From Bispira polyomma (Eukaryota), in NCBI GenBank assembly GCA_965649765.1, contig OZ287754.1:48980001-49044000 (forward strand): DNA of 64,000 nt, read 5' to 3'. Below are positions 22,729 through 52,986 of the stretch, in pieces. Each line of letters begins with the position of its first letter. Position 1 is the stretch's first letter. A model generated the notes under the pieces. That model worked only from the letters and a program-made list of their open reading frames with translations, was not told where the DNA came from and made no database searches. The position numbers were made by a program, and so were the translations under genes.

Positions 22729-22734
22729 TTTATT
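22729..22734 (-). promoter_or_regulatory. Candidate polyadenylation signal AATAAA of the SEA-EGF gene
   Basis: TTTATT on the + strand, about 35 nt downstream of the minus-strand stop at 22770. Confidence 0.4.
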
Positions 22735-22769: not shown

Positions 22770-23065
22770 CTAAACACCCCCACCTCCTCCCACTGCCAGT
22801 TCAGACACAAACTGTGGCTGTTTGATGTAAACATTATTATTAGGTCCACCAGCCTGCAGACCAAGCTGTTGTAGACATTGGTACATTAGACATCGCTGGT
22901 TGCCAGTAATGTAACTGATAGTGTTCACACTTGCGTCTTGACAACCTTGTGCTATACAGTCGTCTTCACTGACATTGTCCACAGTAGTGAGTATAGTGCC
23001 ACAGTTCACAAGTAGTGCGCAGCTGTACAGAGTGCAGTCGATAATTTTACGGAAACTGCATGCAG
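22770..23065 (-). CDS. Terminal exon: PAN/apple- or MANSC-like Cys-rich domain
   Basis: Acceptor ttctttcag, phase 1. Encodes ACSFRKIIDCTLYSCALLVNCG...SEDDCIAQGCQDASVNTISYITGNQRCLMYQC...NVYIKQ; stop at 22770-22772. Confidence 0.75.
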
Positions 23066-23370
23066 CTGAAAGAATTAAAATCACAGTTGACATGAATTAC
23101 ACGTGATGTACAACGATGACTGAATTAAAACAGTTACATATTGCGCCGAATTATTGACATTTCATCATATAAGGCGCTTATTTCTCTTATTTCATACCAT
23201 TGGTGTTAGACGATGGCCCATAGTAACCATTAATGGCACTATTGTCAGTCAAACTAGGGACCTTCTGATCACCAGACCAACTCTCTAGCCTCTTGTATTA
23301 TTTGTAAAGCGCTACATTGATATACATAACTTGTAAATCTTGGACTAGTTTAAAAAAGTTATTCATTTAA

Positions 23371-24140
23371 ATCTGGCTTTACCTTATTGTGATTGTTAGT
23401 GAATATATGCTTTTCTATCTGGCTCTACCTCAATGTAATTGTTAGTAAATGTATCATTTTCTATCTGGCTCTACATCAATATAATTGTTAGTAAATGTAT
23501 GATTTTCTATATTGCTCTACCTCAATGTGATTGTTAGTAAATGTATACTTTTCTATTTGGCTCTACCTCAATGTGATTGTTAGTAAATTTATGATTTTCT
23601 ATCTGGCTCTACCTCAATGTGATTGTTAGTAAATGTATGATTTTCTATCTGGCTCTACCTGAATATAATTGTTAGTAAATGCATCATTTTCTATCTGGCT
23701 CTACGTCAATATGATTGTTAGTAAATGTATGCTTTTCTATCTGGCTCTACCTCAATGTGATTGTTAGTAAATTTATGATTTTCTATCTGGTTCTACCTCA
23801 ATATGACTGTTAGTAAATGTATGATTTTCTATCTGGCTCTAACTGAATATAATTGTTAGTAAATGTATCATTTTCTATCTTGCTCTACCTCAATATGATT
23901 GTTAGTAAATGTATGTTTTTCTGTCTGGCTCTACCTCAATATAATTGTCAGTAAATGTATGTTTTTTCTGTCTGGCTCCACCTTAATATAATTGTTAGTA
24001 AATGTATGATTTTCTATCTGGTTCTACCTCAATGTGATTGTTAGTAAATGTATACTTTTCTGCCTGAATCTACCACAATGTGATTGTTAGTAAATATATG
24101 CTTTTCTGTCTGGCTCTGCCTCAATGTGATTGTTAGTCAA
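23371..24140. repeat. Minisatellite, 46-bp unit, ~17 copies
   Basis: Unit ATCTGGCTCTACCTCAATGTGATTGTTAGTAAATGTATGATTTTCT (starts 23371, 23417, 23463...). Confidence 0.96.
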
Positions 24141-24239
24141 TGACATTTGTGATGTATTCTTGTTTAATTCTATTTGTAAACTTGTTATAATTTAGTTATG
24201 TAACCTAGGTTTCAAAAATTCTTTTTAAAAAAGGAAAAA

Positions 24240-24700
24240 AAATCCAGATTGATATACATCCTTCTCAAGCACGTGTTGTCCAAGGAAGAGGGATAGTCCT
24301 AAATACAAGAAAGATATCATAACCAATGGAAGAGTCAGGCATGGAATGCTATGGTGGGTGGGAAGGCCAATCTAAAGAGACATGTTTGTCATTTGTTCCT
24401 GAAAGAAGTAATTTATGTTAGGGATCTGAAAAATGGTGGTAACTTGTTCCATTCCACCAAATCAGTTACTTGAAAGCTGTAGTGCTAAATATAGATTCCA
24501 TTGTTGAACTATTACACTTGACTAGGGAAGACAAGCAAGATGGTTGATTGACTGAGATTGACTTGAAAGTGACAAGTTGTATTTAAACAGGATGAAATAT
24601 TTTATTGGGAGTCAGTGTAATTTTTGAAGGTATAGGGACTGCCATGAGTATGGATCAAAGAATACCACAATTTCAGTATGATAAACGACCTTAAATTGTG
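24240..24700 (-). mobile_element. Degenerate LINE (L2/CR1 group) 3' fragment
   Basis: Minus strand encodes WNKLPPFFRSL..SFRNK..TCLF, a typical ORF2 C-terminal motif, with stops. Confidence 0.5.
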
Positions 24701-25815
24701 CAGATAATAGAAGCAATTGTCACCACAATAACCTCTGACTAACCTTACTCCCTGAACTAAGGGTCTTTTATAGACTTGCTTACAAGTCTATACTGTTTAT
24801 GAAACACTATATGACTGCATTTTACAAAGTTCCCATTCTGTCCAAGAGGTGTCAGGACTAGTTTTCTATAACTGCCAACTTCTTCATTTTATCGCAAATG
24901 TAAATCCATGGAGGGATATAGACTAACAATCATAATGCCCTCATGGAAGGACCTTGTACAAGGTGTAGGTCTTTTACAGAAGTTTGTATACACATAATGT
25001 GCACATTATAGAAGTCCTAGAACAATTGACAGCAACTGCAAGTTAAAAGGTGACTGAAATAATTTATATAATTATAATTAATTTATATATATATGTTTTT
25101 TTTAATATATGAAATCCATACATTAATAGCTAAACTTTCTTCTAGTCCTTTTTGTCTCAAGCACTATATGAGGTCAGTATGACTTTATATAAAGACTAGC
25201 TCAATTCGCATAGTCGAATCATGATGACTTCATGCATGGTGGATAAGGAATAAATACACAGACTTGTCAGTAAGTACATAGACTTGTGAGCAAATCTTAA
25301 TTATAGCATACGACTTACTTATCTTAGAGTACACATTACAAAAAATGAAGAACTGTCACTTCCCAGATAAATAGATTTACATATAATAACAACATTAGAA
25401 TAAGTAAAAAAAAATTCTGTACTAAAGGCTTTTTTGTTCTTGATAATGAGGATTTACTGAACTATTTTACTTGAATATACCTATATTTTGAAATTTTGAT
25501 ATGGAACAGCCATTTAAAAGTGAAATTTAACTAGCTATGATTTATTATTATGCGATTGATATTCATTCTACTGTCTGACTGGTTTAAAGCCAAGCACATG
25601 ACCCATTAGCTATTGGCTAGTTGATGTTAATTTTTGCAGAGGAATATTTATTTTAAAGTATTTATTATTTTATAAACTGATGCAAGTTATTATATTGGCA
25701 AACACATTGCTTCTCATCGTCCACTATTGGTTTCCTTGGATCAATAAACATTTTGTATTGCACTTTTAACCCTTCCGATCTCTATGTTGTCAGCTAAATT
25801 TTTTTTTTTTTTTTT

Positions 25816-26049
25816 TAAATTGGATATTTAACGTCCACTCTAGTACCTGTATAGGTTATATTGGGATGGGTAGTTGGAAACGCTGGATACGGTTGATCAA
25901 GGTTCTGCACTGAAACTAGCGGCCCACAGTAAGGAACTACCATCTTTCCCACATAGGCATCAACGGGATTCGAACTTACGCCGCCCAGAGGTGAGAGACA
26001 AGTGATTGTAAAGCGCAATGCTTGATAACCACTAGGCCACCACGGCCCC
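25816..26049 (-). mobile_element. tRNA-derived SINE (young family), copy 1
   Basis: A box TGGCCTAGTGG and B box GTTCGAATCC on the minus strand; A-rich tail; near-identical to four other copies. Confidence 0.9.
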
Positions 26050-26750
26050 TATGTTGTTGACTAGCAACCGACAGTATTTCTTACTCCCAGAACCTATGTC
26101 TGTCGCCAAGCAGATGAGCGGCCAAAAATGTTTGATTTTCATTTATTTCCTTGCAATAGAAAATTGTTAGTACAGCAGAATCCTCCGTTTAAACAATTAA
26201 TACTCGAGGTCGTTATTGAAAGCAGGAAGTAGTCTGTGGTGTGTTTTAGTGACTCCAGCTATATATAACCTATTACCCAAAAGATTTCCTTGAGTTCCAG
26301 GCAATAGTTCTCTGTTGGGGTTGAAACGGTGTAAGATGTAATAATTGCTAAATATATACAGTGAAACTGCAAGCGGTGAGCCGAACAAAGTAAAAATATG
26401 TGCCCCATTGTACAAAGTTTACTTGTAACTATGTAATAAGCAAAATCAGCATTGAGTGTGCATGCCGGTGGCTTTCCTTCCACTTAAAATGTTCAATCTT
26501 AATATCAATTAAATTTGTTTTAACAAAGGTTTTGTTATTATATCTTTATTTTTACAATAACTTTTTTTATGATGTATTTAATCAAACTAAGATTTTATTA
26601 CTTGTTCTGGTTATATTTTTCTTTATTATCTCGCACTGAAGCACAGTCATCACATTTTATATATGTCCATTTGTAATGCTGAATTGGCTTATACCAATGT
26701 GCAAACACTAGAAATAAGAGCACATACCTAAACCTGAGCTATATACTTAC

Positions 26751-26867
26751 CCATTTCACATAGAGTACCATTATATCCAGTACCTGTACAATTACAGTCA
26801 AATGAACCATCTGTATTGCTACAATCTCCACCATTTAGACATGGACTCTCTGAACATTCATCTATAT
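26751..26867 (-). CDS. cbEGF exon 10 (type B)
   Basis: ag/gt, phase 1-1, 117 nt: DIDECSESPCLNGGDCSNTDGSFDCNCTGTGYNGTLCEM. Confidence 0.92.
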
Positions 26868-28418
26868 CTAGAAATAGAAGACATTTCTTCCATAGGATCT
26901 AATGCAATTCTACCCTATTCCCCTCAAGTTTATACCATATTTCCGTGTTTTCACAAAATCAAAGCTCTAATTGTTGACTGTACAACTGTTGACTGTACAA
27001 CTAATTATAGTCAATCCCCTTAAAGTAGAACTCGTTAAGTCAATTTCTCTTTTGTATGGGAAAAAGTTTATAGTCCCACGAAATTTACCCTGTTAAGTGG
27101 AAATCCTGTATTTTTGCCTGGTCGGTTAAGGTTTGACTTATAGGGGTTCAAATGTAAATTATCCCTCTAAACTGAGATAAAAAATTTAGGATTATTATTT
27201 GTTAACATCCCCAAGGTTTTCTTTAGCCTGCCACTTCAAATAGCAAGACACAATGGCAGAAGATCATCATTGAAGTGGTCATCTGAGCCAATATGTATCT
27301 GTCTGTACCTGAGAACTACAGGTTTAGATAGAACCAAAGTTCTCTGTGTTCCTATGTGATGTAACCAAAACTTTGCTATGCCTAATCCAATACATTCAGA
27401 ATATTATCTGTAGACACAACCATCAAGTTAGCAAATACACTGGACCAAGGTGAGCAGTAGGCTCGACTACTGCAATTCCCTGCTCATCATCCATTCCAGC
27501 TTTAAATTAAACAAGTTGTTCAGAGTACTTCAGTCACATTCAACAGCATTGGTCATATCGCAATGGCCAGGATTAGTGGTGGGGGGAAGCACCAATTAAT
27601 GGCAAGTACCTGACAAACTTTCTGACATGAAGAAAGAATCTGTAGGATTTAATGCCAAGAGCTGACCAGAGGCCAGTGATATTAAAGCAGATGCTTATCA
27701 TTTTAAAATTGCATCGACCTACAAAACAGTAAATCCACTCAGTTTATCCGGAGTCACTTGTATGAGTAACCCTCATCGCAATTAACTTTAGGTTCTATAC
27801 AGTAGCCATTTCGACAAATCAGCATCATATGTTGCCCTTTCTCTCTGGAATAATATTTCACTCTATATCAGGACAGCAAGAGCTTAGAAACCATTGTAAC
27901 TCTAATCTTTTTAACCAAATCTTTCTAGCATGGCCCTTCTCCTCGCTTATCTGAATGCTAATCTTTTGGCTGACAACTTTGGCTATCCCTCTTGTATGAT
28001 GAAGTTTGCCTATATTTAGTATGCTATGGTACTTTAGTTATCGTATTGGAAAGATTTAAGGCCTATAATGTACTAGATTAGATGTGAAGTGAGAATGATA
28101 TCATGTAAATATGAGCAGCAGTGGCCTATTGAATCATATAATGTAAATAGGGGCATCAGTGACATAATAGTTAAAATTGCCTGTCTAACAATCACTGGTA
28201 TCTTACCAATATGGGTTCAAATCCTGTTTGTTCTTTTGTAAGGGAAGTTTGTCAGGTACTTGCCGTAGGTTGGTGGTTTACAATGCTCAAGGACTGGTTT
28301 GTCCTACTATTGAATATTGCAGTCGTATGACCTAAGCTGTTGAAAGTGATGTAAAAACCCCAACTAAATTCAAACTTTAAAGACATCATGTAAAATAGAC
28401 TAAAAAAGACATGTTTAC

Positions 28419-28532
28419 CCTCTTCACACAATGTCCCTTCAAATCCTGAGTCAGTACAGTTACACAGAAAACCTCCTGCAGTATTGACACATATTCCATT
28501 TGTACAGGATACTTCAGAACATTCATCAACAT
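28419..28532 (-). CDS. cbEGF exon 9 (type A)
   Basis: ag/gt, 114 nt: DVDECSEVSCTNGICVNTAGGFLCNCTDSGFEGTLCEE. Confidence 0.92.
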
Positions 28533-29232
28533 CTGTAAAATGAAACCAAAGGTGAAACCAGAAGTGTGTTATTTGACACTGAAGATGTCTTGTTAACATT
28601 GTGGACATGATGAATTTAACATTTTGATGTAGGCTAGTTGCCATGAATTAAGCAAACAAAGCAAGATATATTGTGCATTATTGACTTGAAAGATGGTAGA
28701 ACATGAAATAAATGAAAATGATTACAAATATATGCTGCTAGTCTTTTATTTATAATCCAAAATACAATTCCAACATCCACCAAATTAACATAATCATCCA
28801 TATTTATTTATAAAACTCTAATTTACATACAGTCAATATATATCTGATGATATCTGAAATACGATAAAGAAAACCAATGTACTTTTAAAAGTTATTTCTG
28901 TCAAAATGCTAACACAATCTAAATATGAAATAATCAGTACCTGGAAAATGCAATATCTCATATAAAAAAAATATTATTGTCTAAATTGGAATATTTTTTA
29001 TTTTAATTGATCTTTTGGGAAGATAAATACTTACCTTATCCTCACTAATGCTTTTATTTGGTTCACCTAAATATTCGACCATAAAAATGACTAAGGTGAT
29101 TTTTATGGTCAAATATTTAGGTGAACTAAATAAAAGCATTAGTAAGAATAAGGAAAGGGTATTTATCGCAATAAAAATGATTATTTGGTATGAAGTTTGT
29201 GTTTTAGCATGATCACTAGTTATCATACTTAC

Positions 29233-29349
29233 CCATTTCACACAGAGTACCATTATATCCAGTACCTGTACAATTACAGTCAAATGAACCATCTGTATTG
29301 CTACAGTCTCCACCATTTAGACATGGACTTTCTGAACATTCATCTACAT
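29233..29349 (-). CDS. cbEGF exon 8 (type B)
   Basis: ag/gt, 117 nt: DVDECSESPCLNGGDCSNTDGSFDCNCTGTGYNGTLCEM. Confidence 0.92.
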
Positions 29350-30399
29350 CTAGAAATAGAAGACACTTCTATGTTATGAACTCTTAAACATCACAAGACA
29401 ATTTTGTTTAATAAAGGCAAATATATATATATATCTATATATCAAAACAATATAGGATAAATATAGAAAATCTCTATGAAAATATAGGGTATTTTAGTAT
29501 CAATATACACTGCATAGAAGTAAACATCATGTCAGACAGGTTTGGTCAAAGTAACTAAAATAAGCTTCAAGTTTAAGTACTATTATTGCAGAGATAGCTT
29601 CACAAAGCAATAAAAATGTATAGACGTATGTTGTACATTTTTGCATGGTTTCGAAATTGGAAAAGCTGACATTTGCAACACACACTTCATTTTTTCGATA
29701 TCCACCACTTCCCCCCCCCTCTCCCCCCCTCTCCCCCCGCCCCCCCCAGAAAATGAGTACAATACTTTTGCAGTGCCACAACATAATTTCAGAAAAAATA
29801 AAGGCGATATAAGAGACTTTAACACAAATAGAGGATGACTATTTATCAATGTCAAAAAGGCTGTTCTTTAGCATGCCACTGGGGACAGAACCCAAATGAG
29901 AGAGGACCACCATTTTAAGTGGTATTTGTTTAATCCCACTTGTATCTGCCTGTACCTTTTCACCCTAAGCTGGAATTGAATGAAGGTCCTCTATGTCCCT
30001 AAGCAGTCTTACCTACTAACTGTGTTACCCACTAGCCGTGAGAGATTTAACCCTTTTGCCTTGTAATCGCCAAAGTTTTACCCTTTTTTTATGAGCTAGT
30101 TTTACCTTCAAAAGTGCCATCATATTGATGTACCATCATATTTGTGGTATTTTAACCAAGGTATGTACAATATTATGTAATGTAAACAATGTACAAAACA
30201 TCTGACTAAGAAAGGAAAATGGCAAATTTCAAATTCAGGCAGCTATATAAAAAAGAACGCACTTCTTAACCTCATCGTGAGATCTTATGTAAATGAAAAA
30301 GGATTACTCGACTAAAATTATCCATTTGTAACTTTAATATACCAATCACATCTGCAAAGGTTAAATGAGGAACATAATGTAAAAAAAAGCCATGTATAC

Positions 30400-30516
30400 C
30401 CTCTGCACAAAGTGTCCCTTCAAATCCCGAGTTGTCACAGTTACACTGAAAACCTCCAGGAGTATTGACACATACTCCATTTGTACAGGGTACACCACCA
30501 GAGCAATTATCAACGT
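30400..30516 (-). CDS. EGF exon 7 (type A)
   Basis: ag/gt, 117 nt: VDNCSGGVPCTNGVCVNTPGGFQCNCDNSGFEGTLCAE. Confidence 0.9.
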
Positions 30517-32670: not shown

Positions 32671-32782
32671 AACTGTATGTTATTGTCTCAAATCAAGACA
32701 AAGAACAGAATGCTCAGGTAAAACTACCTTTGAGGACATTTTCATAAGATGGCTACATGGTGATCATATATGTTTTACTTAC

Positions 32783-32899
32783 AAGACTGGCACTGAGATC
32801 CGTTATAGCCTGTACTGGTACAATCACAACTAAATGAACCATTGGTATTACTACATTCTCCGTCATTGAAACAGGGATCCCCTAGGCATTCATTTATAT
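32783..32899 (-). CDS. cbEGF exon 6 (type B)
   Basis: ttccag/gtaagt, 117 nt: DINECLGDPCFNDGECSNTNGSFSCDCTSTGYNGSQCQS. Confidence 0.9.
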
Positions 32900-35315: not shown

Positions 35316-35474
35316 NNNNNNNNNNNNNNNNNNNNNNNNNNNNNNNNNNNNNNNNNNNNNNNNNNNNNNNNNNNNNNNNNNNNNNNNNNNNNNNNNNNNN
35401 NNNNNNNNNNNNNNNNNNNNNNNNNNNNNNNNNNNNNNNNNNNNNNNNNNNNNNNNNNNNNNNNNNNNNNNNNN
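35316..35474. other. Assembly gap (N run)
   Basis: Run of n characters. Confidence 0.99.
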
Positions 35475-36505: not shown

Positions 36506-36620
36506 CCTCTTCACAACATATTCCTTGATATCCTGATTCTGTACAATTACATCAGTAATTTCCTGGGATTTTCAGACATTCTCCATTATCACAGGGATCT
36601 GTCGAGCAGTCATACTTTAT
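36506..36620 (-). pseudogene. EGF pseudo-exon (type A)
   Basis: DCSTDPCDNGECLKIPGNY*CNCTESGYQGICCEE. In-frame TGA at 36552-36554, intact gt donor, no AG at the expected acceptor. Confidence 0.85.
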
Positions 36621-37179
36621 CATTACACATGAAGTATTACTACATGTGTAGAAATGTCTCTTTATATATGTACTAAATGTTCCTTGCTTATTTTTGTAAC
36701 TCTATGCAAGGCTATTTAATACCCCTATTCCACTATGCCGATCATACCCCCTGACCTTAACAATTGTAAGTTTGGGGGTCTTTATTGTGGACGATTCGCC
36801 CCATTAATGACTTATCTCTTGATGAAAAGACTTTTATTAGAAGTGGTTGATAAATCACAAGGAAGCCCCGATTGTAAAGATAACAGACTTTTATTTTTTC
36901 TTATAAAGAATAAGTGAGACTAGTTAAACAAATATTGCAATTATGTCAGGAAAAAGGAGAGTTACAAAGACAAGGAGTATACAGCCAAGACAGGAGGGGG
37001 AGAGGGAGTTTGAAAGGAGCGATACAGATGATAAGGATATTATTCCAGAAGCGCAACAGTCAGTCGAGGCCCCAGAATTTTTTTAACAGTTGAACCGGCC
37101 TACTCTGAATATAGCGGGATTGCAGGACACCTAGGAGACTCAGGATACCCAGCATAATAGGAATACCCCAGACAGTGAG

Positions 37180-37860
37180 GTGGCGGCCTTGAGTCAGAAA
37201 CAGAAGAAGGGGAAGATGAACACTGTGTTGTTAACCGATGAACAGGAGGAGACTGTGGTGAACTTCCTGAAGGAACATGAGTGGCTCTACAATAAATGCA
37301 ATCCAATGTATAAAGACACTCACAGGAAGACCATGCTGTGGAAGTCATACTGCTCAACTAAGGGATTGGATTACATAGAAGTGATGAAGTGGTTCACATC
37401 CCAGAGGACTATCTTTGGCAAGCCTAGTGTACCCAAGTCTGGGCAAGCTGCCCCAAAATTGACCGAGCGACAGCAGTGGGTGAAGACCAACTTTGCGTTC
37501 CTCAGCCGCATATTAGATGCCAGCTCAACAAGTCTGCTGGATTAAAGCCTATAGCGTCAGCCTCTCAGGGGGCTGCCCCATCTGTTGCACCTGATTCACC
37601 TGTTGCGTTGTCCCACTCCGATACAGACCAGGGCGAGCTGGAGTTGTCTAACTTGGCCTCACTAAAGTCATCCATAGCCTTTGGATCCTTGACTCCTATC
37701 CAGGAGAGACAGGAGAGGCAGATCATGATTGAGTTAGCAGATTACATTGGGAGGATGTAACAGATTATTACAAAGATCCTGACGGAGGCAAAGAAACCCA
37801 AAGATGAGAGAGCCCAAGGAGCCTATATGAACTGGTTAAGCAAGGAGACGGAGGAGTGGA
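37180..37860 (+). pseudogene. Harbinger Myb/SANT-like (MADF) DNA-binding protein, frameshifted
   Basis: LTDEQEETVVNFLKEHEWLYNKCNPMYKDTHRKTMLWKS...WFTSQRTIFGK..KSGQAA; continues in a shifted frame. Confidence 0.8.
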
Positions 37861-37989
37861 GCATACTATAACCCACCATCAGTAGGTCTACTGTCAGTAG
37901 GTCCACTGTCAGTGGACAGTGACATCCTGAATACCTCGAAAGCTTCCTCATTTACCAGAGGATTCGACTGGGTCATCTGCTGGGTTTGG

Positions 37990-38972
37990 GTGCTCTCCTT
38001 CCTGGTTAATAATTTTACTTCTGAGCATGTTGTGGGTTAAGGTGGCTACCACAGGTGGTTCCTGCTGCATCGTCAAGAGTAAAAGTCTAAATCTGGCTAC
38101 TAATATACCAAAGGCATTCTCCACCACCCTTCTGCCCCCGGGATATCCTGTAGTTAAACATCCATTGCATAGGGTCCAGGCCTCGTCTGGAGAAATGTTT
38201 TATCATGCAGGTCTTGAAGGCAAATGCGTCATCTCCCATGATGAAGTAGGGGGTGGGGGGCTTCCAAGGTTTATGGGTTCAGGATCAATCTTTTCCTTCA
38301 ATTTAAATTGGTTAAAAATCTGTAAATAAGACCAGGAGCCACTGGAACCCAGGTCCACCCACATGAAGTGGTAATCACCATCCACCAGGGCCAGCATAAC
38401 GATGGTGTGGAATACTTTAGTTGTAGAACTCACTCCCCCTTTCTTGGACATCTCATTGCTATGTGTTTGCCATCTATGGCCCCCAGGGCATTGGGGACAT
38501 TCCGGGTGTCTCTGTATATAGCTGTGACCTTCTTCCAGTCCTCTGGGGTGGTGGGGCATCAGAGAAATTCCTCCTGGAATTCATCAATGATAGCCGGGCA
38601 AACCTCAGGAACATACGTGGTGATGGTTGATTTCCCCACCCGGAATGCGTACTAAAGTGAGGTGTACGACTCCCCAGTTGCTAAATGTCTAAAAGTTATT
38701 GCAATCTTCAGTCCAGGTGAGAGTGTCTTGCGGTACCAGGTCATGTTTTTTGCAATTCTGGGGGCCACCCTCCTCTCCAGTTCCTGGAAAAATTTCGGGG
38801 TCATCCTCAAAAAGTCCTTGTACGACCATGCATCTTGTGCCTCAATCTGTGGTAGAAGTGCCGAATAGTGACCCTGCTCCTCCCTATTCCTAAGTAACGG
38901 CTTCACCCAGAACCTCCTTGGTGCTCTGGCTCTCCTGATCCTGACATTATTATCCTGATTCTGTGTCGGCAT
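37990..38972 (-). pseudogene. Harbinger transposase (HARBI1-like DDE nuclease), disrupted
   Basis: RRFWVKP, FLRMTPKFFQEL, KIAITFRHLATGESYTSL, VMLALVDGDYHFMWVDLGSSGS, GDDAF and [14 protein letters not shown] across several frames with stops. Confidence 0.9.
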
Positions 38973-41006
38973 GAGATTTTGTCTTCTTCAACCTTAAAAA
39001 TCTCTAAGTGCAAGTAATTGTATCCCCATAAATGCTAACAAAGCTTGTAGAATTTGGGCAATATCTATAATCCTTTGGGGTATCATGTTGCTCAGTTGAG
39101 TTTTCAATAAAAACTGTCTGGATTTGTGTGCTCTCCCTCTATATATATGATTTTGGAGGTGAATCGCGAGGCCCTGTACGTCTCCCGATTGCAAAATTGA
39201 AAGATCTACCTTATCGAGGTAGCGAGTAATCAGGATCGAGGCACCGACCTATCTGGATCAAGGTACCGACCTATCGGGGGTGACAAAGACCTATCTTTAT
39301 GGACGTAACTGGTTGTAACGACCTATCTTGGTCAATCGCGAGGATATTTTTTGTTTGTAAGAGCAAAATCCCTGATTTGTCTCAAGCTATCGGGCCTTAC
39401 TCGAGACCTATCATAACAATCGGGAACCATTACAATTATAGTTGTGAAACGTAAAATTTCCCGCCTTTTTGTCTAAAATTGGGGTAAAATACTAACGATT
39501 GCTCCGACCGTATTATCGGGGTCTCCTCCCGATATGTCTTGATAGTGTGACAATGTGACAGCGGCTTTAAGTGACTAATTACTATCATTTGGGCAGGATA
39601 GTAATCTTTAAATGTTTTAGATGTTGACTTTTTCTGAAAAATGTAAGGTCAGCTTATAGCTGTAAGATAGTGGGCAGTGTTCATTGTCAGAAATAAATTC
39701 AAGAAAATGTCTTGGCTGGGAACATTTTTTTTTGGCAAATGAAAAAGACATTTGCAGTGCTATCTTATAGAAGCTGTATTAATGTGAATACTATAAGAAA
39801 TATTGTACATAAATCACATAATTAAATAAATTATTGCCAAGTAAAAACAAAATTGTCTTCCAATATCATTTACCCTAAAAAGTGGAAAATTTCATTAGGA
39901 ATTTATTTCAGGTATTTTCACTTACAAGCTTGAATAGTGAACATTAATCACAAATGGATATTTAGCTTTCGGTTTGTATCTACCTTTAAGGTAAAAATTG
40001 AAAAAATATCTGTTTTTAAAACTTTAGTGAAACTCCTACTACAAGTAGCAAATAAGTAAAATTTTACTCCAGCTAAGATTTCCACTATGTCTTGTAGATT
40101 GCAACAATTTACCATTCTTGACAGTATCTGTCAAATATTTCGAATTTACACCTACACAAAAACAAGAAGAGAATGTAAAACTCCATAAAGACCAGAGTTG
40201 CACAGAGAACAAACAATCCTGACAATGTGCGATTGCTACCAGTCTATTATCTAGGAGAATATTGGAACTCAATATGGTGGTACTAGAGAAAATAACCTCA
40301 AAAACTTACAGAAATACCATAACATAATTCTTTATCATAGAAATAAAATTGCCAATATCGGTGAAATATTAGACAAGAGCACGTTTATGCCCCTGTCTTA
40401 CCAGCCTTCACACTGGATGTCGTGAAAAAATAAATTTTGCGTGAGAGATGGTATGGAAGAAATTTCAAAGACACGCAAACGATGTGGAAATGTAGTGTGC
40501 TGTATGGTGGGTATTTGCATGGGTGTTGCGGAGAGTGGCGTGTTCTAGCATGGTGATGTGTGGCTGTACATATGAACATGGTGTAGCATATGGGCGCATG
40601 TGGAATTGCATCCATTACAGCAATTACTGGCGTGGCTTTGTGACAGTTTGCGCTTGTGCGTGTTGTTGCTTGATGTGGTGTACAATAAAGTGTCTTCCTG
40701 TTTGTCTTGTTGCTTGATGTGGCGTATAATAAAGCGTCTTCCTGTTGGTCTTGGCATGTAGCTGCGTGTCATTTTTGCGGCTACTGAGGCATTTGCATGG
40801 ACAGCGACTCTCAAGGTTTTCGTGTACATGTGTGTCAATTTGTGTGTGAGTTTATGCCTTTTTTACGAAAATCGTGTTATATCAACTTTTGTGTGGACTT
40901 TTGCATCAAATGTCATCCAGGGTCGTGTGTGACTTACATATCCTAACATAAATCCGGTGAGCCTGGAGCATTAGCCTTTATTTGTACTGTAAATTGGCAT
41001 ACTTAC

Positions 41007-41120
41007 CGTCTTCACAAAGCGTGCCTTCATACCCTGAGTCAACACAATTACACTGAAAACTTCCTGCAATATTGACACATACTCCATTTATACAGGGATC
41101 TTCTGTACATTCATTGGTGT
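41007..41120 (-). CDS. cbEGF exon 5 (type A)
   Basis: ttacag/gtaagt, 114 nt: DTNECTEDPCINGVCVNIAGSFQCNCVDSGYEGTLCED. Confidence 0.92.
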
Positions 41121-41279
41121 CTGTAAGAAGGAGGCATATATAAGTGGCTGTTCCATAAAAGTTCACCATGTTAAGTATTAACAAAAAGGCCAAAGCCTGA
41201 TAGCCCAGATAAACACAGCAACCAGATGCCTAGAAGTATAGATTATTCTCACTGATCTTATAAACCACACTTGTACAGT

Positions 41280-41535
41280 GGGGCCGCGGTGGTGTAGTGG
41301 TTAGCAAGCATTGCGCTTCACAATCACTGGTCTCCCACCTCTGGGCGGCGTAAGTTTGAATCCCGTCGATGCCTTTGTGGGAAAGGTGGTAGTTCCTTAC
41401 TGTGGGCCGCTGGTTTCAGTGCAGAACCTTGATCAATTGTATGCAGTGTTTCCTCCAGCCTTTCAAACTGCCCGTCCCAATATAACCTAAACAGGTACTA
41501 GAGTGGACGTTAAATATCCAAATTCAAATTCAAAA
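41280..41535 (+). mobile_element. tRNA-derived SINE, copy 2
   Basis: GGGGCCGCGGTGG head, A/B boxes, (AATTCA)n tail, TSD GTACAGT. Confidence 0.92.
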
Positions 41536-42091: not shown

Positions 42092-42208
42092 CTATGTGGC
42101 AGGTGTCTCCACTGTAGCCTGTAGCTGTGCAATCACAGGTAAACGATCCCTCTGTGTTTGTGCAAGTACCATTGTTCAGGCAAACCCCATCATCACATTC
42201 ATTTATAT
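42092..42208 (-). CDS. cbEGF exon 4 (type B)
   Basis: ag/gt, 117 nt: DINECDDGVCLNNGTCTNTEGSFTCDCTATGYSGDTCHI. Confidence 0.9.
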
Positions 42209-42692: not shown

Positions 42693-42806
42693 CATTTTGG
42701 CATGAGGATCCATTGAACCCGGAGTTCCCACAAATACACAGAACTCCACCTGCTGTGTTGACACAATCTCCATGTGTACAAGGATTGTCATCACACTCAT
42801 TGGTAT
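42693..42806 (-). CDS. cbEGF exon 3 (type A)
   Basis: ag/gtaagt, 114 nt: DTNECDDNPCTHGDCVNTAGGVLCICGNSGFNGSSCQN. Confidence 0.92.
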
Positions 42807-43141: not shown

Positions 43142-43258
43142 CTATCTGGCAGGTTTCTCCACTGTAGCCTGTAGCTGTACAATCACAGGTAAATGATCCC
43201 TCTGTGTTTGTGCAAGTACCATTGTTCAGGCAAACCCCATCATCACATTCATTTATAT
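43142..43258 (-). CDS. cbEGF exon 2 (type B)
   Basis: ag/gttagt, 117 nt: DINECDDGVCLNNGTCTNTEGSFTCDCTATGYSGETCQI. Confidence 0.9.
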
Positions 43259-43832: not shown

Positions 43833-43946
43833 CATCTTGACATAAAGATCCACTGAAGCCAGAGTTTCCACAAATACATAGAACTCCACCTGCTGTGTTG
43901 ACACAATCACCATGTGTGCAAGGGTTGTCCTCACACTTATTGATAT
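43833..43946 (-). CDS. EGF exon 1 (type A)
   Basis: ag/gtaagt, 114 nt: DINKCEDNPCTHGDCVNTAGGVLCICGNSGFSGSLCQD. Confidence 0.9.
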
Positions 43947-44599: not shown

Positions 44600-44812
44600 G
44601 TGGGGCCGCGGTGGCCTAGTGGTTAGCAAGCATTGCGCTTCACAATAACTGGTCTCTCACCTCGGGCGGCATGAGTTCGAATCTCGTCGATGCATTGATC
44701 AGAACCTTGATCAACTGTATGCAGTGTTTCCTCCAGCGTTTCCAACTAACCGTCCCAATATAACCTAAACAGGTACTAGAGTGGACGTTAAATATCCAAA
44801 TTCAAATTCAAA
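44600..44812 (+). mobile_element. tRNA-derived SINE, copy 3 (internally deleted)
   Basis: 13-bp TSD ACCTTTCATCAGT (44587-44599, 44813-44825); A/B boxes; tail. Confidence 0.92.
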
Positions 44813-45771
44813 ACCTTTCATCAGTCTACTGCAATACCAATATGTTGGTATATTGTTACCCAGTGACCCCTTAAGCGTAAAAAAGGTCTACGAAACTTAA
44901 GTAAAGGACCAAGCCATAAAACTTAGACACTGTAATTTTAAACTTTCAACAGTAAAAATCTGACAATAGTAATTGCATTGTATTATGGATTTTTAACCCA
45001 CCCCATTGATGCGAGACATCTTCTAAAGTGCAACAACAGCATCTGTTAACCAATAGAGAAGTCCAAATACATAGCCAAGGTATAGCAATATAACCCTAAC
45101 TTGCTCCAAGTAACAAGTCAGGAGACATCTTGAGAAGGTTTTGTTAAAATCCTAACACTATTGTAGGAGTGCTGATGGATCCTAGCATGTTGGCCATAGT
45201 CCCGATTGGGTGCCAACAACATTGCTCCTGTTCAAGACTCTTATGGTCTAACAACAATTTCTTTTAAAGTCTTACTGGATCCTGATCAGTCCTGGTGAAT
45301 CAGAGTTAAATCGTAATGCATCATAGGTGTGATCTGGTCTCAGTTAAACTGGACAATTTTCTCCATACCAAGTACACTAACTTATTAGTTGTGAGACACT
45401 ACTGATGCCCCCTTCCATAGTAAGTCAGAGGCAGTAGTTATGTCTCAATAGATCGCCACGGTAATCATTGTAGGTCAGTACTATCTTTATGATGTTGACT
45501 GTTTCCTGTTTATCGCTTGATTTTTAATTCTGATTACCATTTTAATCAAACACTTTGATTATAATAAAAAAAGTGCTAAAAAGTTTGATAATAAATAATG
45601 AATAAAATTTATGAAAGACTTTAACTTTCTTGTAAACCACACTAAGAAGGACTATATATATAAATGCTTAAGTTTACTGGTAATCAATTGGGTTTAACAC
45701 CTCATACAATAAGGAGTTCTTTGATTATTATATTTCGACCCTTTGTGAGCAGAAGTCTTATCAGAGGCAAT

Positions 45772-47080
45772 GCTTGTAATTTTAATTGTAATTAGACTTT
45801 CATAGCGCTTAATCTCCCCTTAAAGAAGGGGACTCTAAGGCGCAACAGCACAAAAGACAATAATCCAATTTCCAATATTAAGGGACAGAAAAGGGTCGAG
45901 CACCACAGAGCGTGCCGGGGAATGATTGAGACTAAGGTGGGTATGCTTTGGTGTACAGTGGGATTTAAGCTGCTTTTTAAAAGAGGCTAGTGAGGGGGAA
46001 GCACGAATCACATCAGGAAGAGCATTCCAAACAATGGGAGCATCAAAAGCAAAACTGTGACCAAACTGTTTAACTGACTTTTGAGTAGACGGGTGGAACT
46101 TTGGAACTACAAGAAAATTACTACCACTCTGACTGTGTCTGGTATTATAGGAACTACTGTAAGAGGAATAATGTGGGGCAAAATACCTTGGAAAACCAGT
46201 GTGAAGAAACTTACGAACAAGTGTAGCTGTTTTAAACACTGAACGCTGTTCAATAGGGAGCCAATGCAATTCATTAAGAACAGGAGTTATACTGGTGTAT
46301 CGACTGGTATTTGACACAATTTTAGATGCACTATTTTGAATGCATTGTAATTTACATAAATTAAACTTTTAGAGACTCCTGAAAAGTGAATTGCAGTAAT
46401 CCAGTCTACTACTGACAAGAGCATTGGCCACAAGTATAGACACATCATAAGTGAGAAACCGCCTGACATGTCTAAAGTCCCGGAGTTGCACAAAACAACT
46501 TTTGCAGACACTCTGAACGTGTTTAGAAAAGGAAAAGTCAGAGTCAAACCATCCACCCAGGTTCTTGACAGAATCAGCTGGGCTGGAAGCTGTCAACTGG
46601 AAACCATGCTTTCAACTTCTCCCTCTGTCGTTTTGAGCCAAAGATTATAAACTCAGTCTTGTCAGGATTAAGTTTGAGTTTACCAGTTGACATCTACTCC
46701 TTCACATCGTCGAGGCACCTGTTCAAATGTTCTTTTTGGGCTAAATACACATAAATTTGGGTATCATGCTGCATCTGCATAGAAATGAAACTTAATGCCT
46801 TTGTATTTGCCAATCACCAATCTGAGAGGGCAGTGTACAATGAAAACAACAGAGGGCCCAAAACATAACCTTGAGAAACACCAAACAATAGTTTACAAAG
46901 ATCGGACAAAGTAGAGGCAATTTTTATTGACTGATAACGATCAGTTAAGTAGGAAGTAAACCACTTAAGAACAGAGCCCCCAACTCCAAACCAAGTCTGA
47001 AGACAACTGAGAAGAGTGGAATGATCAATGGTGTCAAAGGCAGCAGAGAGGCTGAGCCACACCAGGGCAGTAGGTTCGCA
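45772..47080 (-). mobile_element. 5'-truncated L2/CR1-group LINE, degenerate
   Basis: LSAAFDTIDH, GVSQGYVLGPLLF, SVKNLG, ALVSSRLDYCNSL, LHWLPIEQR and WNALP. 3' motif GATTAAGCGCTAT plus (AATTAC)-like tail. Confidence 0.92.
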
Positions 47081-47175
47081 TAATACATACCAACTTTATT
47101 GGTAATCAGGTTTTCAGTCCGTAATGTACATTTTGGCCTTGGATGGTGTATCTGGTAATCTTCTTAGTAACTTAC

Positions 47176-47241
47176 CTGGTGAAATAAATTCCAAAACTTT
47201 CGTGCCCTTAATGTCTGTACACGTAGTGCTGGTGCACACCT
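47176..47241 (-). CDS. Linker exon between SEA and EGF array
   Basis: tctttcag/gtaagt, 66 nt, phase 1-1: EVCTSTTCTDIKGTKVLEFISP. Confidence 0.7.
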
Positions 47242-47828
47242 CTGAAAGAGAAAAACACCTAGCTGACTTAAATGGTAAATTAGAATTTTGCTGACTCGCC
47301 ACATGCATATCCCCAGATGAAGCATTTGTCAATGCCACACAAACCATTTTTGTCTAAATGAGGTAGTCATGTACAAAAATACTATCCATTCGACGAATTT
47401 CTGGTCTTAACTTAGAAATGGAAATTCCAATACAAACCTCGAATCTTTGAAATAGAACAGTTAGTTAATACAAATACACATTTAGGTCAAAGCAAAGATG
47501 CTTTGAAATGTTTTATAAATGTGTGATATAAAAGAAAAACACAACTTTTTGAAAAGACTGGAAAGTGGTACTACTATAATTGGGAAAGGTGATTGTATGA
47601 AAGGATGTCCATTAAATATAGGAGACATTTAGTAAAAATTTTACTCAAATTGAACCTCCTCCTGTCGAGAGGGAGGATACTAAAAATTTGACTGTTTGAA
47701 TTCAGCACTGAAAGCTCTATTGCAATGAATGGTGACCAGTATAGGTAATTATAGATACAGGAGTTATACATCGTCTTCATTTGAGTAGAGTCTGAGGTTC
47801 TTTTTAGAATAGGGGGCTCTAAACTCAC

Positions 47829-47992
47829 CATTAGATACTTCTTCAGTGAATGTTACAAAAATGGTGTTGTCTTTTATTGGAAAGTTGTCACTACCTTCCT
47901 TTAACATTGTGAAGACAGTCTTAACAATATCTGATGAGGCTCTTGTTGAATTTACAAACTCAATCGTGAATGCAATTGATACTGATCCCTTC
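47829..47992 (-). CDS. SEA domain exon 3 (GSV motif)
   Basis: tttcag/gtgagt, 164 nt, phase 2-1: KGSVSIAFTIEFVNSTRASSDIVKTVFTMLKEGSDNFPIKDNTIFVTFTEEVSN. Confidence 0.85.
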
Positions 47993-48439
47993 CTGAAACA
48001 TATAGGATATACAGGTTTTTGTGTGAATATTCTTTTGTATTCAAATTCTTATATTCTGTCCAGTATCAACCTTTTGTCTGGGCTTGTCGTCATGAACATA
48101 ATATTGTGGTTTAATTGGGGAGTAGCAAAAAAAAAATATTATTTAACAAGAATCTATCTTACTAATAAAACAAACAGAATAAAAAAAATTTAAATTAATT
48201 TATTTATTTTTTCTTATTTTTTTAAAATTTTTTTTTTTATTATTTATTTATTTATTTTTTTTTTTTGTTGTCATTAAATTGGTACGCCTGGGCGTACTGG
48301 CGTTAATGGTAGCTACGCCACTGCTTTTACTCCATTTATCGATAACTTATTGACATTTTGATTAGCACAAATACTACAGAATAACTACTTTAAATACGTT
48401 CTGATTTAAAACATTTTATAGGTAATCTTAACAAGTATA

Positions 48440-49320
48440 ATGTTACACAAAATACATGTAGCAATGTGTAAAATTATGGTAAAAATAGTTAATATAGTTC
48501 AAAGTACATGCTTTCCAAATGCATCACAACTCACATATAAAGAAAGAAATCAATACTGAAGTATGGTACATAACTCAACAATTGACTTTGGATATTTAAT
48601 GTCCACTCTAGTACCTGTTTAGGTTATATTGGGACGGGTAGTTGAAAACGCTGGAGGAAACACTGCATACAGTTGATCAAGGTTCTGCACTGAAACCAGG
48701 AACTACTACCATTCCCACATAGGCCTCGATGGGATTCGAACCCCCGCCGCCCAGAGGTGAGAGACCAGTGATTGTGAAGCGCAATGCTTGCTGACCACTA
48801 GGCCACCGCGGCCCCCATAACTCAACAAAGGACAGCTTCAGCATTATTTTGCATGATTTAGTTTTTCAGTTAAAACGCAAAAACTGGGTTAACTTCTCAG
48901 AAAAACATTTAAGTTACTGTCTTCTTAGAAAAAATGTCATCTGTACGGCAATTATATAAAATAAGGAAATCTATTAAGAAATGTCAATCATTGAAAATAA
49001 ATATATGTTTCTGTTTTCTAAAGTGGGGGTAGTGTACATAATGCCGTCATATATGCCGGATGAATAGCCGTATTATGTCACAGTGGAAACCCTTTTCTCT
49101 TGGATATATTTACAAATATGACATTCCAACATCGATTTGAATATGTGTGACGTCACAATACAGAGGCCATGGTATTGCTGTTTTAATCATAGCAGTGCCA
49201 AAACAATGACGTTTAAAAGTTGTTCCCATATACAAAAGTTATAAAAAACAACAGTAAAGTACTTTCAAGGTTGGCATAGCATGATATGTAGTAAATATAA
49301 ATTAACGTTCATAACATTTT
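48440..49320. mobile_element. Older partial copy of the Kolobok-like element, interrupted by a SINE
   Basis: Colinear similarity to 62232-62750 (CAAAGTACATGCTT, CAGCATTATTTTG, TGTGTGACGTCACAATACA). Confidence 0.65.
48582..48815 (-). mobile_element. tRNA-derived SINE, copy 4
   Basis: 13-bp TSD CATAACTCAACAA (48569-48581, 48816-48828). Confidence 0.92.
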
Positions 49321-49399
49321 TAGAGGAATCATAGCGGATGATTTGCACATTCATGTTACTGAACCCCTCAAACTAGAATACTATTAAAGATCTACTCAC

Positions 49400-49461
49400 G
49401 CTATGCCCGTTACCACACAACTTGTGTAACCGTAGTCCAGACTGCTGTACATTTGATCTAA
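49400..49461 (-). CDS. SEA domain exon 2
   Basis: Pyrimidine-rich acceptor ...cttctag, donor gtgagt, 62 nt, phase 0-2: LDQMYSSLDYGYTSCVVTGI. Confidence 0.82.
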
Positions 49462-50649
49462 CTAGAAGCCAAACACAAGAGAAGAGAACACTAAGAACAC
49501 TCAGAACTTAAATATATATATATAGCAACAAAGAAGCTTCCATGAGCAAAAAGGTGTAAATTTGAAAATGGCCAGGATTTGTGGTTTAGTTTTTTATTTT
49601 ATATTAATTGATGTATACACTGTCGGCATAAAATATACCCCAGAAAATTGGCTACTTTATCATATATAAGAAATGAGGATATATATTGATTTCAACTAGA
49701 TTCTATCTCTGTATATGCCGATTTTGATTTACAACGTTTTGCATATGGAAGCCGCTCTGTCGTCAATCAGCAAAACATCAGTTTAAAAAGCTGTCATTGG
49801 CGGCAGAATACTCGGTCTACTACAGTCCCTAAGGCAATCTTTGTACCAAATATGAACTTCCTCTGCCTCACAATTTCTGAGAACCAGCCCAGACAAACTG
49901 TATAACCATAGTTTAGATTGCCGTACATGTGATCTTACTGGTATAAGTGAAGCAAGATTGAAGATATAAGGCCATTGCAAACCAGTTCTTGTGTGGTATG
50001 ATCCAAATGTTTATAATCAAAAAACATTTTGCAAATGATAAAAACATATTGTCGATACATACACAATCACATCCGATTACATAAGTGCCATTTTCTATGG
50101 ATATTTCTGAAATAGAAATGTCTCTAATGTTCGTCTGATCATAGTATCTGGTTACCTCAAGAGAGCATCTTGTTACCTCAAGATAACATCACGTTACCTC
50201 GAGATTTTTTTACAAAAAAAAAAAACAAAAAACAAATTGTATGGCAAAACATGAAGAAACTTTGGCAGAAACATTGGGGAGGGACATTATTAATAAGTGC
50301 AAATAGGACAAACCACAATAAAGATGTCTTGATACTTTAAATCATAAAATAGTTTATAAGAAAATAGACAGCCTGGAAAGATTTATTATAATTCAATTAC
50401 ATACTGATAAAAAAAGATTTTCTTTTAACAAACATTTATGCTCTTAATACTAATAGGGAACAACTAAAATATTATGAAGATTTATTGCATGATACGGAAC
50501 ATGAAGACATAAATAAATGTTAATGTTAATATAATTATATCAGGGGACTGGAATTTAGTTCAGAATGTAAGTATAGATTAAAAAAGGTGGAATTTCATCA
50601 AGTAAAGGATCTTGCAAATTAGTACAAAATATGATGAACAAGCTAGAAG

Positions 50650-50880
50650 TGGTAGATATTGGGGACTTGAAAACCTAAGTACAGAATATGGAATCAAAAG
50701 CAATCAGAAATACACTGTAGGCTTAATAGACTACTGGATGATGTTATATAACTGAATAGATTGGGTCACCTATGCAAATATTAACTTTTTTCAAACTGAT
50801 CATTCTCAGATAAGTTTAATTTTGCAATATGATGATAACTGTGACAGAGGGAAAGGATACTGGAAAACGAACAGATACCT
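50650..50880 (+). mobile_element. Highly degenerate L1-type endonuclease fragment
   Basis: Remnants of IDYW, TDHS and RGKGYWK.N motifs. Confidence 0.45.
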
Positions 50881-51826
50881 TTTATTTTTTATAGTATTTA
50901 ATGATAGCATGGATGTAGAGGAATACAACTTGGTATATATTACAGAATTTTTAAGGCGTGACAAATTTAATCAAAATTTTGCTTAAAAATCTCCACAAAT
51001 GAAGAATTTGTCGAAATTCTAAAGGCTTGGTAATTTGTCAGCTGTTTGCCTGCATCTTTGAAACTTTCCCCAAACTGCTTATGAAGGCTCGGTCAACATT
51101 TTACGCCTACCCGAGAAATATTTGAATCTGTTACACTTGCAAAATAGTAGTTTTGCAAAGTATTAAATAACTTTGTAGTGGCAATATAAGAGACATCATC
51201 AAAGTAGTTAACAGTTATAATAGTCCAGGTATATGAAATAGGACATTTAATATAGCGCACTTATACAACACAGGGCCGTTTCAAATGCACTTCCTCATGG
51301 GCAGCCACTATAAAATGGGTGCAGAGGCTTGCTTTAGAATGACCATTTATCAACGTCCGCAATGATCTTTAACCTGTCACTGGAGATATTACTCAATGAC
51401 CTTAAGGAGCGTTTGCCGTTGAGCTATGACAAACATTTTTTTTAGAAAACCCAATGATAAGCACTAATTAGATCCCCGGGGGTCATGTGACTTTTTAAGT
51501 ACAAAGGAGACCACAAATAGTTTTTCCAAGACTGTTGCTAAGCACTGTTATCATGCACAAAATGGTAAACATGTGGTCATAATCTTCAAACAGCTCGAGC
51601 TAAACTCAAGCTCAAATCTAAGGTACACATATGTCTCGCCAGAATAAAGATAGGTAACATCTAATTACATATTTAAATTCAGTGATCAAATCTCTATTAA
51701 AACGAATGGTTACAAGTATTGGGTATTTCCAATAAACTGTAAAATCACAGCTGTCCTTTATTAGGGTTGAGTGTTGGTTTCCTTGGATCATATGGTCCCT
51801 GGTGTCTGTTTTAGCTGTACACTCAC

Positions 51827-51951
51827 CTCACTACAGAACACATCACTCACATCCTTGTAAGCTGCAGATGTTGGATCGTCATAGTCATCTTGATAGTCCC
51901 AGTTCAGACTTACTCGGCCATGGATTGTAACATCAGAAACATCATTATTTG
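51827..51951 (-). CDS. SEA domain exon 1
   Basis: ctacag/gtgagt, 125 nt, phase 1-0: ANNDVSDVTIHGRVSLNWDYQDDYDDPTSAAYKDVSDVFCSE. Confidence 0.85.
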
Positions 51952-52239
51952 CTGTAGATCAGATCGATTAAAAATATTATATCAATGCTGTATAATATAT
52001 ACAAAAAAGCATATGTTACCACAGAGAGCTGCAGAATGGGTTTGCTGACATAACAAAGAAGAATAATATCTAGCGATGAATGAAGGATTATTCTCATGTC
52101 ATATCTTTTGTCGTTTAGTCGCCATACATTGGTACTTCCCAAAAGGACAAAGGACAACGTCACAGACTATATTTGGAAAAAACCAAGGACACAAAGTCGA
52201 TTTCGGCAGGCCAAAGTCATTAGCTGAAATGAAAAAAGT

Positions 52240-52460
52240 CCTAAAGTCACAGGCTGGCTTGGTATAGGGCCAAGGTCACAGGCTGACTTAGTATAGGACC
52301 AAGGTCACGGGCTAGCTTGTTAAAAGGCCAAGGTCACAGGCTGACTTGGGACAAGGCAGTATCACAGGTTCACTTCAGACCAGGTCAGGGTCACAGGCTG
52401 TCCCGGACAAGACCCAGGGTATTGGGGGACTTCAGACAAGGCAAATGTCACAAGGACACA
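52240..52460. repeat. Degenerate ~30-bp tandem repeat
   Basis: Recurrent CCAAGGTCACAGGCTGACTT units. Confidence 0.7.
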
Positions 52461-52852
52461 CATATTAGTTCATTCTTTAACACATTGGTCGCAGATACAA
52501 CTGTTACATTCACACAGTAACCTTGACATAATTTGACATAATATACAGATATGTACCATCAACTGTTTACTGTTTCATTGAAATTGTAAGTAAAGACGGT
52601 ATTCACCTTTGGTACAATTAATTACAGTTAATGTTCATATATAGGAGCAATAGTTATACTTTTATATAGTTTAAATTATATTGAAATAATCCTTAAAAAG
52701 TCATGATTTAAATTCAGTTTACAGAATGCCACTTGTGGAAGAAGTAATGTACCAACCTTTGACTTTTATGACTCCCTCAATATGGAATTTATAATTTCAA
52801 AAGCAATTGTTTTACAGAATTAGGTATAAAATAAGTGATCTCATTGACTTAC

Positions 52853-52986
52853 CATAATAAATCCCAAAGTAAATTGACAGAGCTATTACCAGGCATATCA
52901 CTAGTGCTATCAAAAGTAGACACAGAAAACGCAGATAAACTACAATTTTTCCGCCATTCTGATGTTCAGTATCGTCTTTGGTTGGT
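52853..52986 (-). CDS. Transmembrane (type II signal-anchor) exon
   Basis: Strong polypyrimidine acceptor, donor gtaagt, 134 nt, phase 2-1: PTKDDTEHQNGGKIVVYLRFLCLLLIALVICLVIALSIYFGIYY. Confidence 0.85.

Follow-up and report, generated by a model that had tools for sequence, protein, structure and literature searches.

Within a 64,000-nt stretch of the Bispira polyomma genome (contig OZ287754.1, positions 48,980,001 to 49,044,000; the whole of it is called the window here, with 1-based coordinates), 16 exons on the minus strand join into one open frame that, judged by its sequence, belongs to a genuine animal gene of intact appearance, coding for a cell-surface protein. The product is probably a non-catalytic type II surface protein that displays a PAN domain at the end of an acidic EGF spacer, stiffened by calcium and mounted on a SEA domain through which shedding may be possible. 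The same overall judgement holds that the gene is functional and was built by shuffling of phase-1 exons.

Exon model, anchor and probable SEA region

The exons run from the first acceptor at 52986 to the end of the TAG stop codon at 22770, with 2,005 exonic nt against 28,212 intronic nt. Joined by script, they give 667 open codons plus the stop, with no internal stop and no frameshift in the exonic sequence, and all 15 introns are GT-AG. Splice sites were scored leave-one-out and ranked against every minus-strand AG and GT site. Donors reach at least the 85th percentile in 15 of 15 cases and acceptors at least the 88th in 15 of 16, the exception being exon 4 (55th); these percentiles are somewhat inflated because the duplicated exons have sites in common. 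For exon 3, three neighbouring acceptors were tried, and only the one at 49461 keeps the frame. The 16 GT-AG exons, the open frame and the splice scores therefore indicate that the exon model of a first-pass annotation, which had proposed one such frame leading from a hydrophobic anchor to an eight-cysteine terminal module and stop, is right. That all exons lie on a single transcript is what we infer from this frame. No second copies of the transmembrane-SEA exons or of the PAN exon were found within the window. In frame order, the exons are:

52853..52986 (−): exon 1, last part of the N-terminal tail followed by the 25-residue hydrophobic run (probable signal anchor), no start codon (KD19 3.35)
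51827..51951 (−): exon 2, N-terminal part of the probable SEA domain (lone Pfam match, SEA)
49400..49461 (−): exon 3, middle of the probable SEA domain (placed by its frame-keeping acceptor)
47829..47992 (−): exon 4, C-terminal part of the probable SEA domain, opening with GSVSI (Atlas lead; weakest acceptor)
47176..47241 (−): exon 5, 22-codon linker with two Cys, phase 1-1 (splice model)
43833..43946 (−): EGF1, type A, with neither calcium-binding consensus element (Pfam and Cys pattern)
43142..43258 (−): EGF2, type B, calcium-binding consensus (Pfam; Notch structural matches)
42693..42806 (−): EGF3, type A, 87% nucleotide identity to EGF1 (DNA comparison, Pfam)
42092..42208 (−): EGF4, type B, 97% to EGF2, flanks duplicated too (DNA comparison, Pfam)
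41007..41120 (−): EGF5, type A (Pfam and Cys pattern)
32783..32899 (−): EGF6, type B (Pfam and Cys pattern)
30400..30516 (−): EGF7, type A (Pfam and Cys pattern)
29233..29349 (−): EGF8, type B (Pfam and Cys pattern)
28419..28532 (−): EGF9, type A (Pfam and Cys pattern)
26751..26867 (−): EGF10, type B, 97% to EGF8 with unrelated flanks (Pfam, DNA comparison)
22770..23065 (−): exon 16, eight-Cys domain with a predicted PAN/apple (MANEC-like) fold, then stop (fold prediction, relatives, Atlas)

The sole strong hydrophobic segment of the frame spans residues 20-44, with KD19 values of up to 3.35. The runner-up reaches 1.65, and the best value among the last 40 windows is 0.28, leaving an N-terminal transmembrane segment only. 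The region that follows is Cys-rich and carries 13 sequons; such a region must face outward, so an uncleaved segment would give a type II protein. The signal-anchor layout proposed earlier is supported by this one segment, and a single-pass type II topology is probable. The ectodomain is strongly acidic (95 D/E versus 14 K/R), and serine plus threonine make up 17.8% of residues overall, spread across the folded modules.

Exons 2-4 very probably encode a SEA domain. Scanned singly, exon 2 has one Pfam match, to SEA (PF01390, E=0.083, profile positions 10-31), and exons 3 and 4 match nothing in Pfam. An Atlas feature lead connects exon 4 to a SEA cluster (score 0.83, with low recognition). GSVSI, at model residue 109, fits the G-S-hydrophobic hairpin cleavage motif, of which there are 10 instances in 127,996 six-frame residues, with ~0.01 expected per 140 residues. 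The amphipathic periodicity of the region is roughly compatible at best with a ferredoxin-like alpha/beta fold. The first-pass annotation put its claim of a SEA domain too strongly, the Pfam match scoring 13.5 bits against a cut-off of 26.4. Many SEA domains self-cleave, with the halves staying associated, as described in PMC10327162 and PMC6586460, and the SEA domain of MUC1 is cleaved between Gly and Ser at GSVVV (PMC9564314). Whether the present domain would self-cleave at GSVSI is close to an even call, leaning slightly against.

EGF spacer and terminal domain

The minus strand carries ten intact EGF segments, as seen in a six-frame scan. Each of the ten exons is 114 or 117 nt long, is phase 1-1, has six cysteines in EGF spacing and matches Pfam EGF or EGF_CA (E<=5.2e-5); all 60 EGF cysteines are retained. 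Both calcium-binding consensus elements, the N-terminal acidic element and the beta-hydroxylation element, are present in seven of the ten, with neither in EGF1 and one each in EGF3 and EGF7. The closest solved EGFs to EGF2 are those of Notch. The array contains 66 D/E and a single K/R. Across four disjoint closest pairs of EGF exons, pS is 0.20 and pN 0.06, giving a pN/pS of 0.30 (Fisher p=8.7e-5). This ratio shows purifying selection on the EGF exons.

Types A and B alternate strictly along the array: among the 126 possible 5/5 splits, the division into odd and even repeats is the best, and the five even repeats are grouped in a tree with a support of 91. By sequence comparison, EGF2 and EGF4 appear to be a recent duplication, their flanks being common too. 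EGF8 and EGF10 are 97% identical within the exon, with flanks at chance level, which suggests homogenisation limited to the exon. The array holds 11 of the protein's sequons, a number not above composition because shuffled arrays have a mean of 7.7 (p=0.125); the richness in N-glycosylation sequons noted earlier is thus explained by composition.

The ten repeats recognised in the first-pass annotation are all intact, but a decayed eleventh had been overlooked:

36507..36620 (−): type A EGF exon outside the open frame, with an in-frame stop and without the expected AG acceptor (nhmmer E=2.9e-10)

This dead exon belongs to the odd type and comes directly after an odd repeat; its loss therefore preserves the A/B alternation. 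Selection to keep the alternation may lie behind the loss, although this is a guess. Between EGF5 and the decayed exon, no trace of a lost type B exon was detected. The EGF5-EGF6 intron also contains an assembly gap of 159 N at 35316-35474, which could conceal one or more further EGF exons, with a bearing on the alternation.

For the terminal exon, 1.84 billion representatives were searched exhaustively, with two matches, of which one is a true relative; a profile search added a second relative. The spurious match, P0004, is a long repeat protein that aligns over 39 residues and has no match to the window. Both relatives are unnamed frames of ~100 residues, 36-39% identical to exon 16. There are eight cysteines in exon 16, eight in P0003 and seven in P0005, and seven of the eight are invariant across the three sequences. 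The relatives end 7 residues past the last shared position, compared with 8 in exon 16, and their similarity begins at the position of the exon 16 acceptor, a pattern that reading from an intron into an exon would produce. Among bacterial and archaeal genomes, 39 pattern matches to the terminal exon were obtained and none was confirmed. Sequence searches of the PDB with the exon or its alignments returned only chance-level matches such as VPS15.

We modelled the terminal domain with AlphaFold2 from the alignment of the three sequences (pLDDT 68.8, pTM 0.62); a single-sequence fold (pLDDT 50.3) was too poor and was set aside. Compared with 48,161 chains in VIA-align, the model has HAI-1 MANEC (2msx) as its top match (Z 8.5, root-mean-square deviation 2.6, 87 aligned), followed by plasminogen (Z 8.4), the HGF N-domain (7.8), and then apple domains, microneme lectins and leech proteins. 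By title, nearly all of the top 14 rows are PAN-containing proteins. The top Foldseek rows are likewise PAN domains, with TM ~0.6 and a best E-value of 0.017, and Atlas features point independently to PAN clusters (scores 0.91-0.92). The assignment of a PAN/apple fold, as a prediction, is sound, in agreement with the PAN/MANSC-like module claimed earlier. The domain may be called MANEC-like by its best structural match. The MANEC domain is described as having eight cysteines, with disulfides between the N-terminus and helix 2 and between strands 2 and 4, and is proposed to mediate protein-protein interactions (PMC12940448). By entry titles, the structural matches include PAN domains that bind glycans or proteins. 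The fold suggests a ligand-binding role for the terminal domain. Exon 16 and its two relatives represent a family of PAN-fold domains beyond Pfam coverage.

The frame appears to end with this exon. No S1 serine protease catalytic motif is present in the six frames of the window, and Pfam scans of the 16 exons taken singly matched EGF-type families and, weakly, SEA. Between 16200 and 22700, ten open segments lie behind strong acceptors, none of them resembling a transmembrane segment (best KD19 1.44). A candidate polyadenylation hexamer follows the stop:

22729..22734 (−): AATAAA ~35 nt past the stop, weak as evidence, the hexamer being common in this AT-rich DNA

The stops of the relatives, the lack of a downstream transmembrane segment, the AATAAA and the missing protease motif together favour a true C-terminus. 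The first-pass annotation had called the protein a non-protease, as the exons and six frames confirm, and had named onward splicing to a protease or second transmembrane exon as grounds for rejecting its model; the search for an S1 motif in the window and for transmembrane-like segments in 16200-22700 gave no candidate for such an exon. A fair donor (93rd percentile) lies directly after the stop at 22770 on the minus strand, and the 3' untranslated region may hold an intron that would leave the protein unchanged.

These data can be combined into a proposed arrangement. The uncleaved hydrophobic segment would anchor the protein with its N-terminus inside the cell and the SEA domain adjoining the membrane. 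Beyond it, the EGF modules, most of them calcium-binding and arranged as five consecutive A-B pairs, would form a stiff, strongly acidic spacer of ~25-30 nm and hold out a C-terminal PAN/apple tip, whose ligand would most likely be a protein or glycan of the matrix, of a microbe or of another cell. Self-cleavage of the SEA domain at its GSVSI hairpin is possible, in which case the EGF-PAN part would be held non-covalently and could be shed.

Alternative readings and relation to known proteins

Several observations weigh against this arrangement. The gene model is a prediction read from genome DNA. The charges flanking the transmembrane segment are nearly alike (0 versus -1). All SEA evidence, though convergent, lies under its thresholds, and searching the PDB by sequence with single exons (2 and 4) matched no solved SEA structure. 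The PAN fold model is built on three sequences. No Foldseek match reaches E<=0.001, Z values of 7-8 are flagged as common for VIA-align, and Pfam shows no PAN or MANEC match at E<=10 for any of the three family members, a search in which HMMER filters drop most hits above 0.1. Word-indexed searches of longer proteins for full-length relatives gave 54 candidates with the terminal exon, none at E<=0.01, and eight with exon 2, none at E<=1; both are weak blanks. There is no in-frame Met ahead of the hydrophobic segment, the first being residue 90, and at least one further 5' exon is therefore required. The exon set proposed earlier stands, but it was not complete, as the 5' end and start codon are missing. 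The start exon may sit beyond the window. One candidate for an additional upstream exon is:

54166..54263 (−): open and phase-compatible, without Met, not separable from chance

In the leave-one-out coding score, this candidate is equalled or beaten by 33% of random open segments. Finally, read-through of exon 5 from 47176 (−) stops after 20 further codons, just before an AATAAA at 47100, and a short transmembrane-SEA isoform ending after exon 5 is possible.

This read-through is also one ground for supposing two transcription units or main isoforms, one a short transmembrane-SEA form that terminates beyond exon 5, the other a secreted EGF-PAN protein started from a first exon of its own. Two candidates of the form ATG, hydrophobic segment and donor, at 46274 and 44424 in the exon 5-EGF1 intron, could supply such an exon, and no relative was found that joins the two halves. 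However, the exon 5 donor ranks at the 99.6th percentile and the EGF1 acceptor at the 98.1st, both in phase 1; similar ATG candidates arise by chance in two of ten later introns (seven candidates); one of the two lies inside a long interspersed nuclear element (LINE) fragment; and AATAAA occurs four times in the same intron. We regard two units as improbable. Less so, though still unlikely, is a secreted or shed matrix component, with a very acidic, calcium-binding EGF rod delivered to mucus, cuticle or mineralising matrix and cross-linked by its PAN tip; the hydrophobic segment or SEA cleavage would then serve for delivery alone. The acidity of the ectodomain would suit this role, whereas a 25-residue hydrophobic run after at least 19 residues would fit an anchor better than a cleaved signal, and none of the shell proteins compared in the accessible part of the sources has this domain order.

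The remaining two alternatives concern the integrity of the gene, and both are very unlikely. If the locus were decaying, its intact frame would be a recent remnant; one EGF exon is indeed dead, a broken Harbinger-type element and LINE fragments lie in the introns, and the start exon was not found. This is hard to reconcile with the uninterrupted exonic sequence and the full set of EGF cysteines, and with the pN/pS of the repeats, though the latter measures past selection. A truncated type II transmembrane serine protease (TTSP) or larger receptor, in which exon 16 is internal and spliced to a catalytic or second transmembrane exon, has if anything a slighter chance. A transmembrane segment followed by SEA opens many TTSPs (PMC4161349), and phase-1 GT sites of the 85th-90th percentile occur inside exon 16. 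Nevertheless, the window offers no S1 motif and the downstream interval no transmembrane-like segment, both relatives stop near the same position, and the stop is followed by AATAAA.

The type II, non-catalytic reading can also be compared with known systems. TM-agrin is described as the type II anchored isoform of agrin (PMC10067498), and agrin as carrying SEA and EGF modules before its C-terminal binding domains (PMC10381214). With TM-agrin, the present protein shares an N-terminal type II anchor, a SEA domain (weakly supported here) with EGF modules, a terminal binding domain (predicted here) and the lack of a protease. Agrin, however, has follistatin-like and laminin-EGF domains ahead of a mid-chain SEA and three laminin-G domains at its end, whereas here SEA lies beside the membrane, followed by ten contiguous EGFs and a PAN tip. 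No follistatin-like, laminin-EGF or laminin-G domain was matched in the Pfam scan of the 16 single exons. TM-agrin is an analogue and not an orthologue. C3orf52 may be a further non-protease case, a short protein of the transmembrane-SEA kind.

TTSPs such as HAT/DESC, matriptase and enteropeptidase have a signal anchor, then SEA, and a C-terminal S1 domain (PMC4161349, PMC7215454). The single N-terminal anchor followed by a probable SEA is common to both, but our frame ends after the PAN-fold exon and has no S1 His-Asp-Ser domain, and we rejected a TTSP identity for want of such a domain or catalytic motif. The stem domains SR, LDLRA, CUB and frizzled were not found here, and an EGF array is not among the TTSP stems listed in the accessible text of these sources.

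In MUC1, cleavage at its GSVVV site leaves a non-covalent, sheddable ectodomain (PMC9564314). A membrane-adjacent SEA domain with a G-S-hydrophobic motif recalls the MUC1-type mucins, but those have type I topology, a signal peptide and tandem repeats bearing O-glycans, whereas the present protein points the other way and its stalk consists of folded EGFs. A MUC1-type identity is rejected by the N-terminal transmembrane segment and the lack of a Pro/Thr/Ser tandem-repeat tract. Should its SEA domain self-cleave, the protein would provide a type II equivalent of shedding in MUC1. A bolder proposal would make it the founder of an undescribed invertebrate 'inverted mucin' family, with a self-cleaving SEA as a force-released latch for an EGF-PAN ligand, a polyanionic stalk of obligatory A-B EGF pairs held in register by selection (the dead repeat being the one that would upset the alternation) and a new eight-Cys PAN subclass distinct from MANEC; we consider this speculative and unlikely.

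The predicted fold of exon 16 resembles that of HAI-1 MANEC and other PAN domains (HGF and plasminogen N-domains, factor XI apple domains, microneme lectins), and its eight cysteines equal the number in MANEC, although presumably only part of them occupy MANEC positions. It differs from the solved MANEC/PAN domains in sequence (7-17% identity), in having no Pfam match and in being C-terminal and not N-terminal. The EGF array resembles those of Notch and fibrillin in its calcium-binding consensus and its one EGF per phase 1-1 exon, but it has only ten repeats and an N-terminal anchor. No exon matched DSL, LNR, ankyrin or TB domains in the Pfam scan.

No publication and no full-length relative showing this order of domains turned up, in searches that are weak for animal proteins and seem to reach annotated invertebrate proteomes poorly. 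Only the order of the modules appears undescribed, each module being of a known type. The first-pass annotation had called the architecture unusual, and the domain order is indeed unmatched, but the surprise was overstated: TM-agrin is also a type II non-protease with SEA and EGF modules. With modules that are known and a general plan already present in TM-agrin, the protein overturns no rule and opens no long-standing question. It is a clean case of a lineage-specific surface protein from exon shuffling, and invertebrate genomes hold many lineage-specific shuffles of this sort. Automatic annotation would probably name the gene by its EGF repeats and miss both ends, because neither SEA nor PAN reaches the Pfam cut-off.

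Surroundings of the gene in the window

The window is AT-rich (29-42% GC per 2 kb) and contains no Rfam families or tRNAs. Within the EGF5-EGF6 intron lies a broken Harbinger/PIF-type transposon (~36870-39420), with a MADF frame at 37135-37542 (+, E=0.0064), DDE_Tnp_4 pieces on the minus strand (E=0.00019) and a 16-nt imperfect inverted pair at 36867/39424. The decayed EGF exon is ~250 nt from this element.

LINE-type sequences occur at three places. A near-complete element at 5496-10477 (+) has an upstream frame, an endonuclease and a reverse transcriptase; a second, at 59628-61973 (+), lies upstream of the gene; and the fragment in the exon 5-EGF1 intron (45838-47095, −) is related to this second element. 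A dispersed repeat of ~250 bp is present in five copies that are 73-89% alike (25813-26053, 41269-41530, 44600-44813, 48580-48818 and 54297-54558). It is probably a short interspersed nuclear element, with no Rfam or tRNA match. Tandem arrays are located at 23371-24142 (46 nt, 16.8 copies, in the last intron), 21180-21688 (94 nt, 5.3 copies) and 54633-54872 (15 nt, 14.6 copies).

Two further open frames were noted. A low-complexity frame of 324 codons at 14973-15944 (−), with an internal duplication (15300-15501/15570-15783) and a GT donor at ~15012 near its end, has no convincing Pfam match and is probably an exon of a separate downstream gene. The other, at 3088-3507 (+), has a sub-threshold CECR6/TMEM121 match (E=0.002) and is a probable neighbouring gene on the opposite strand.

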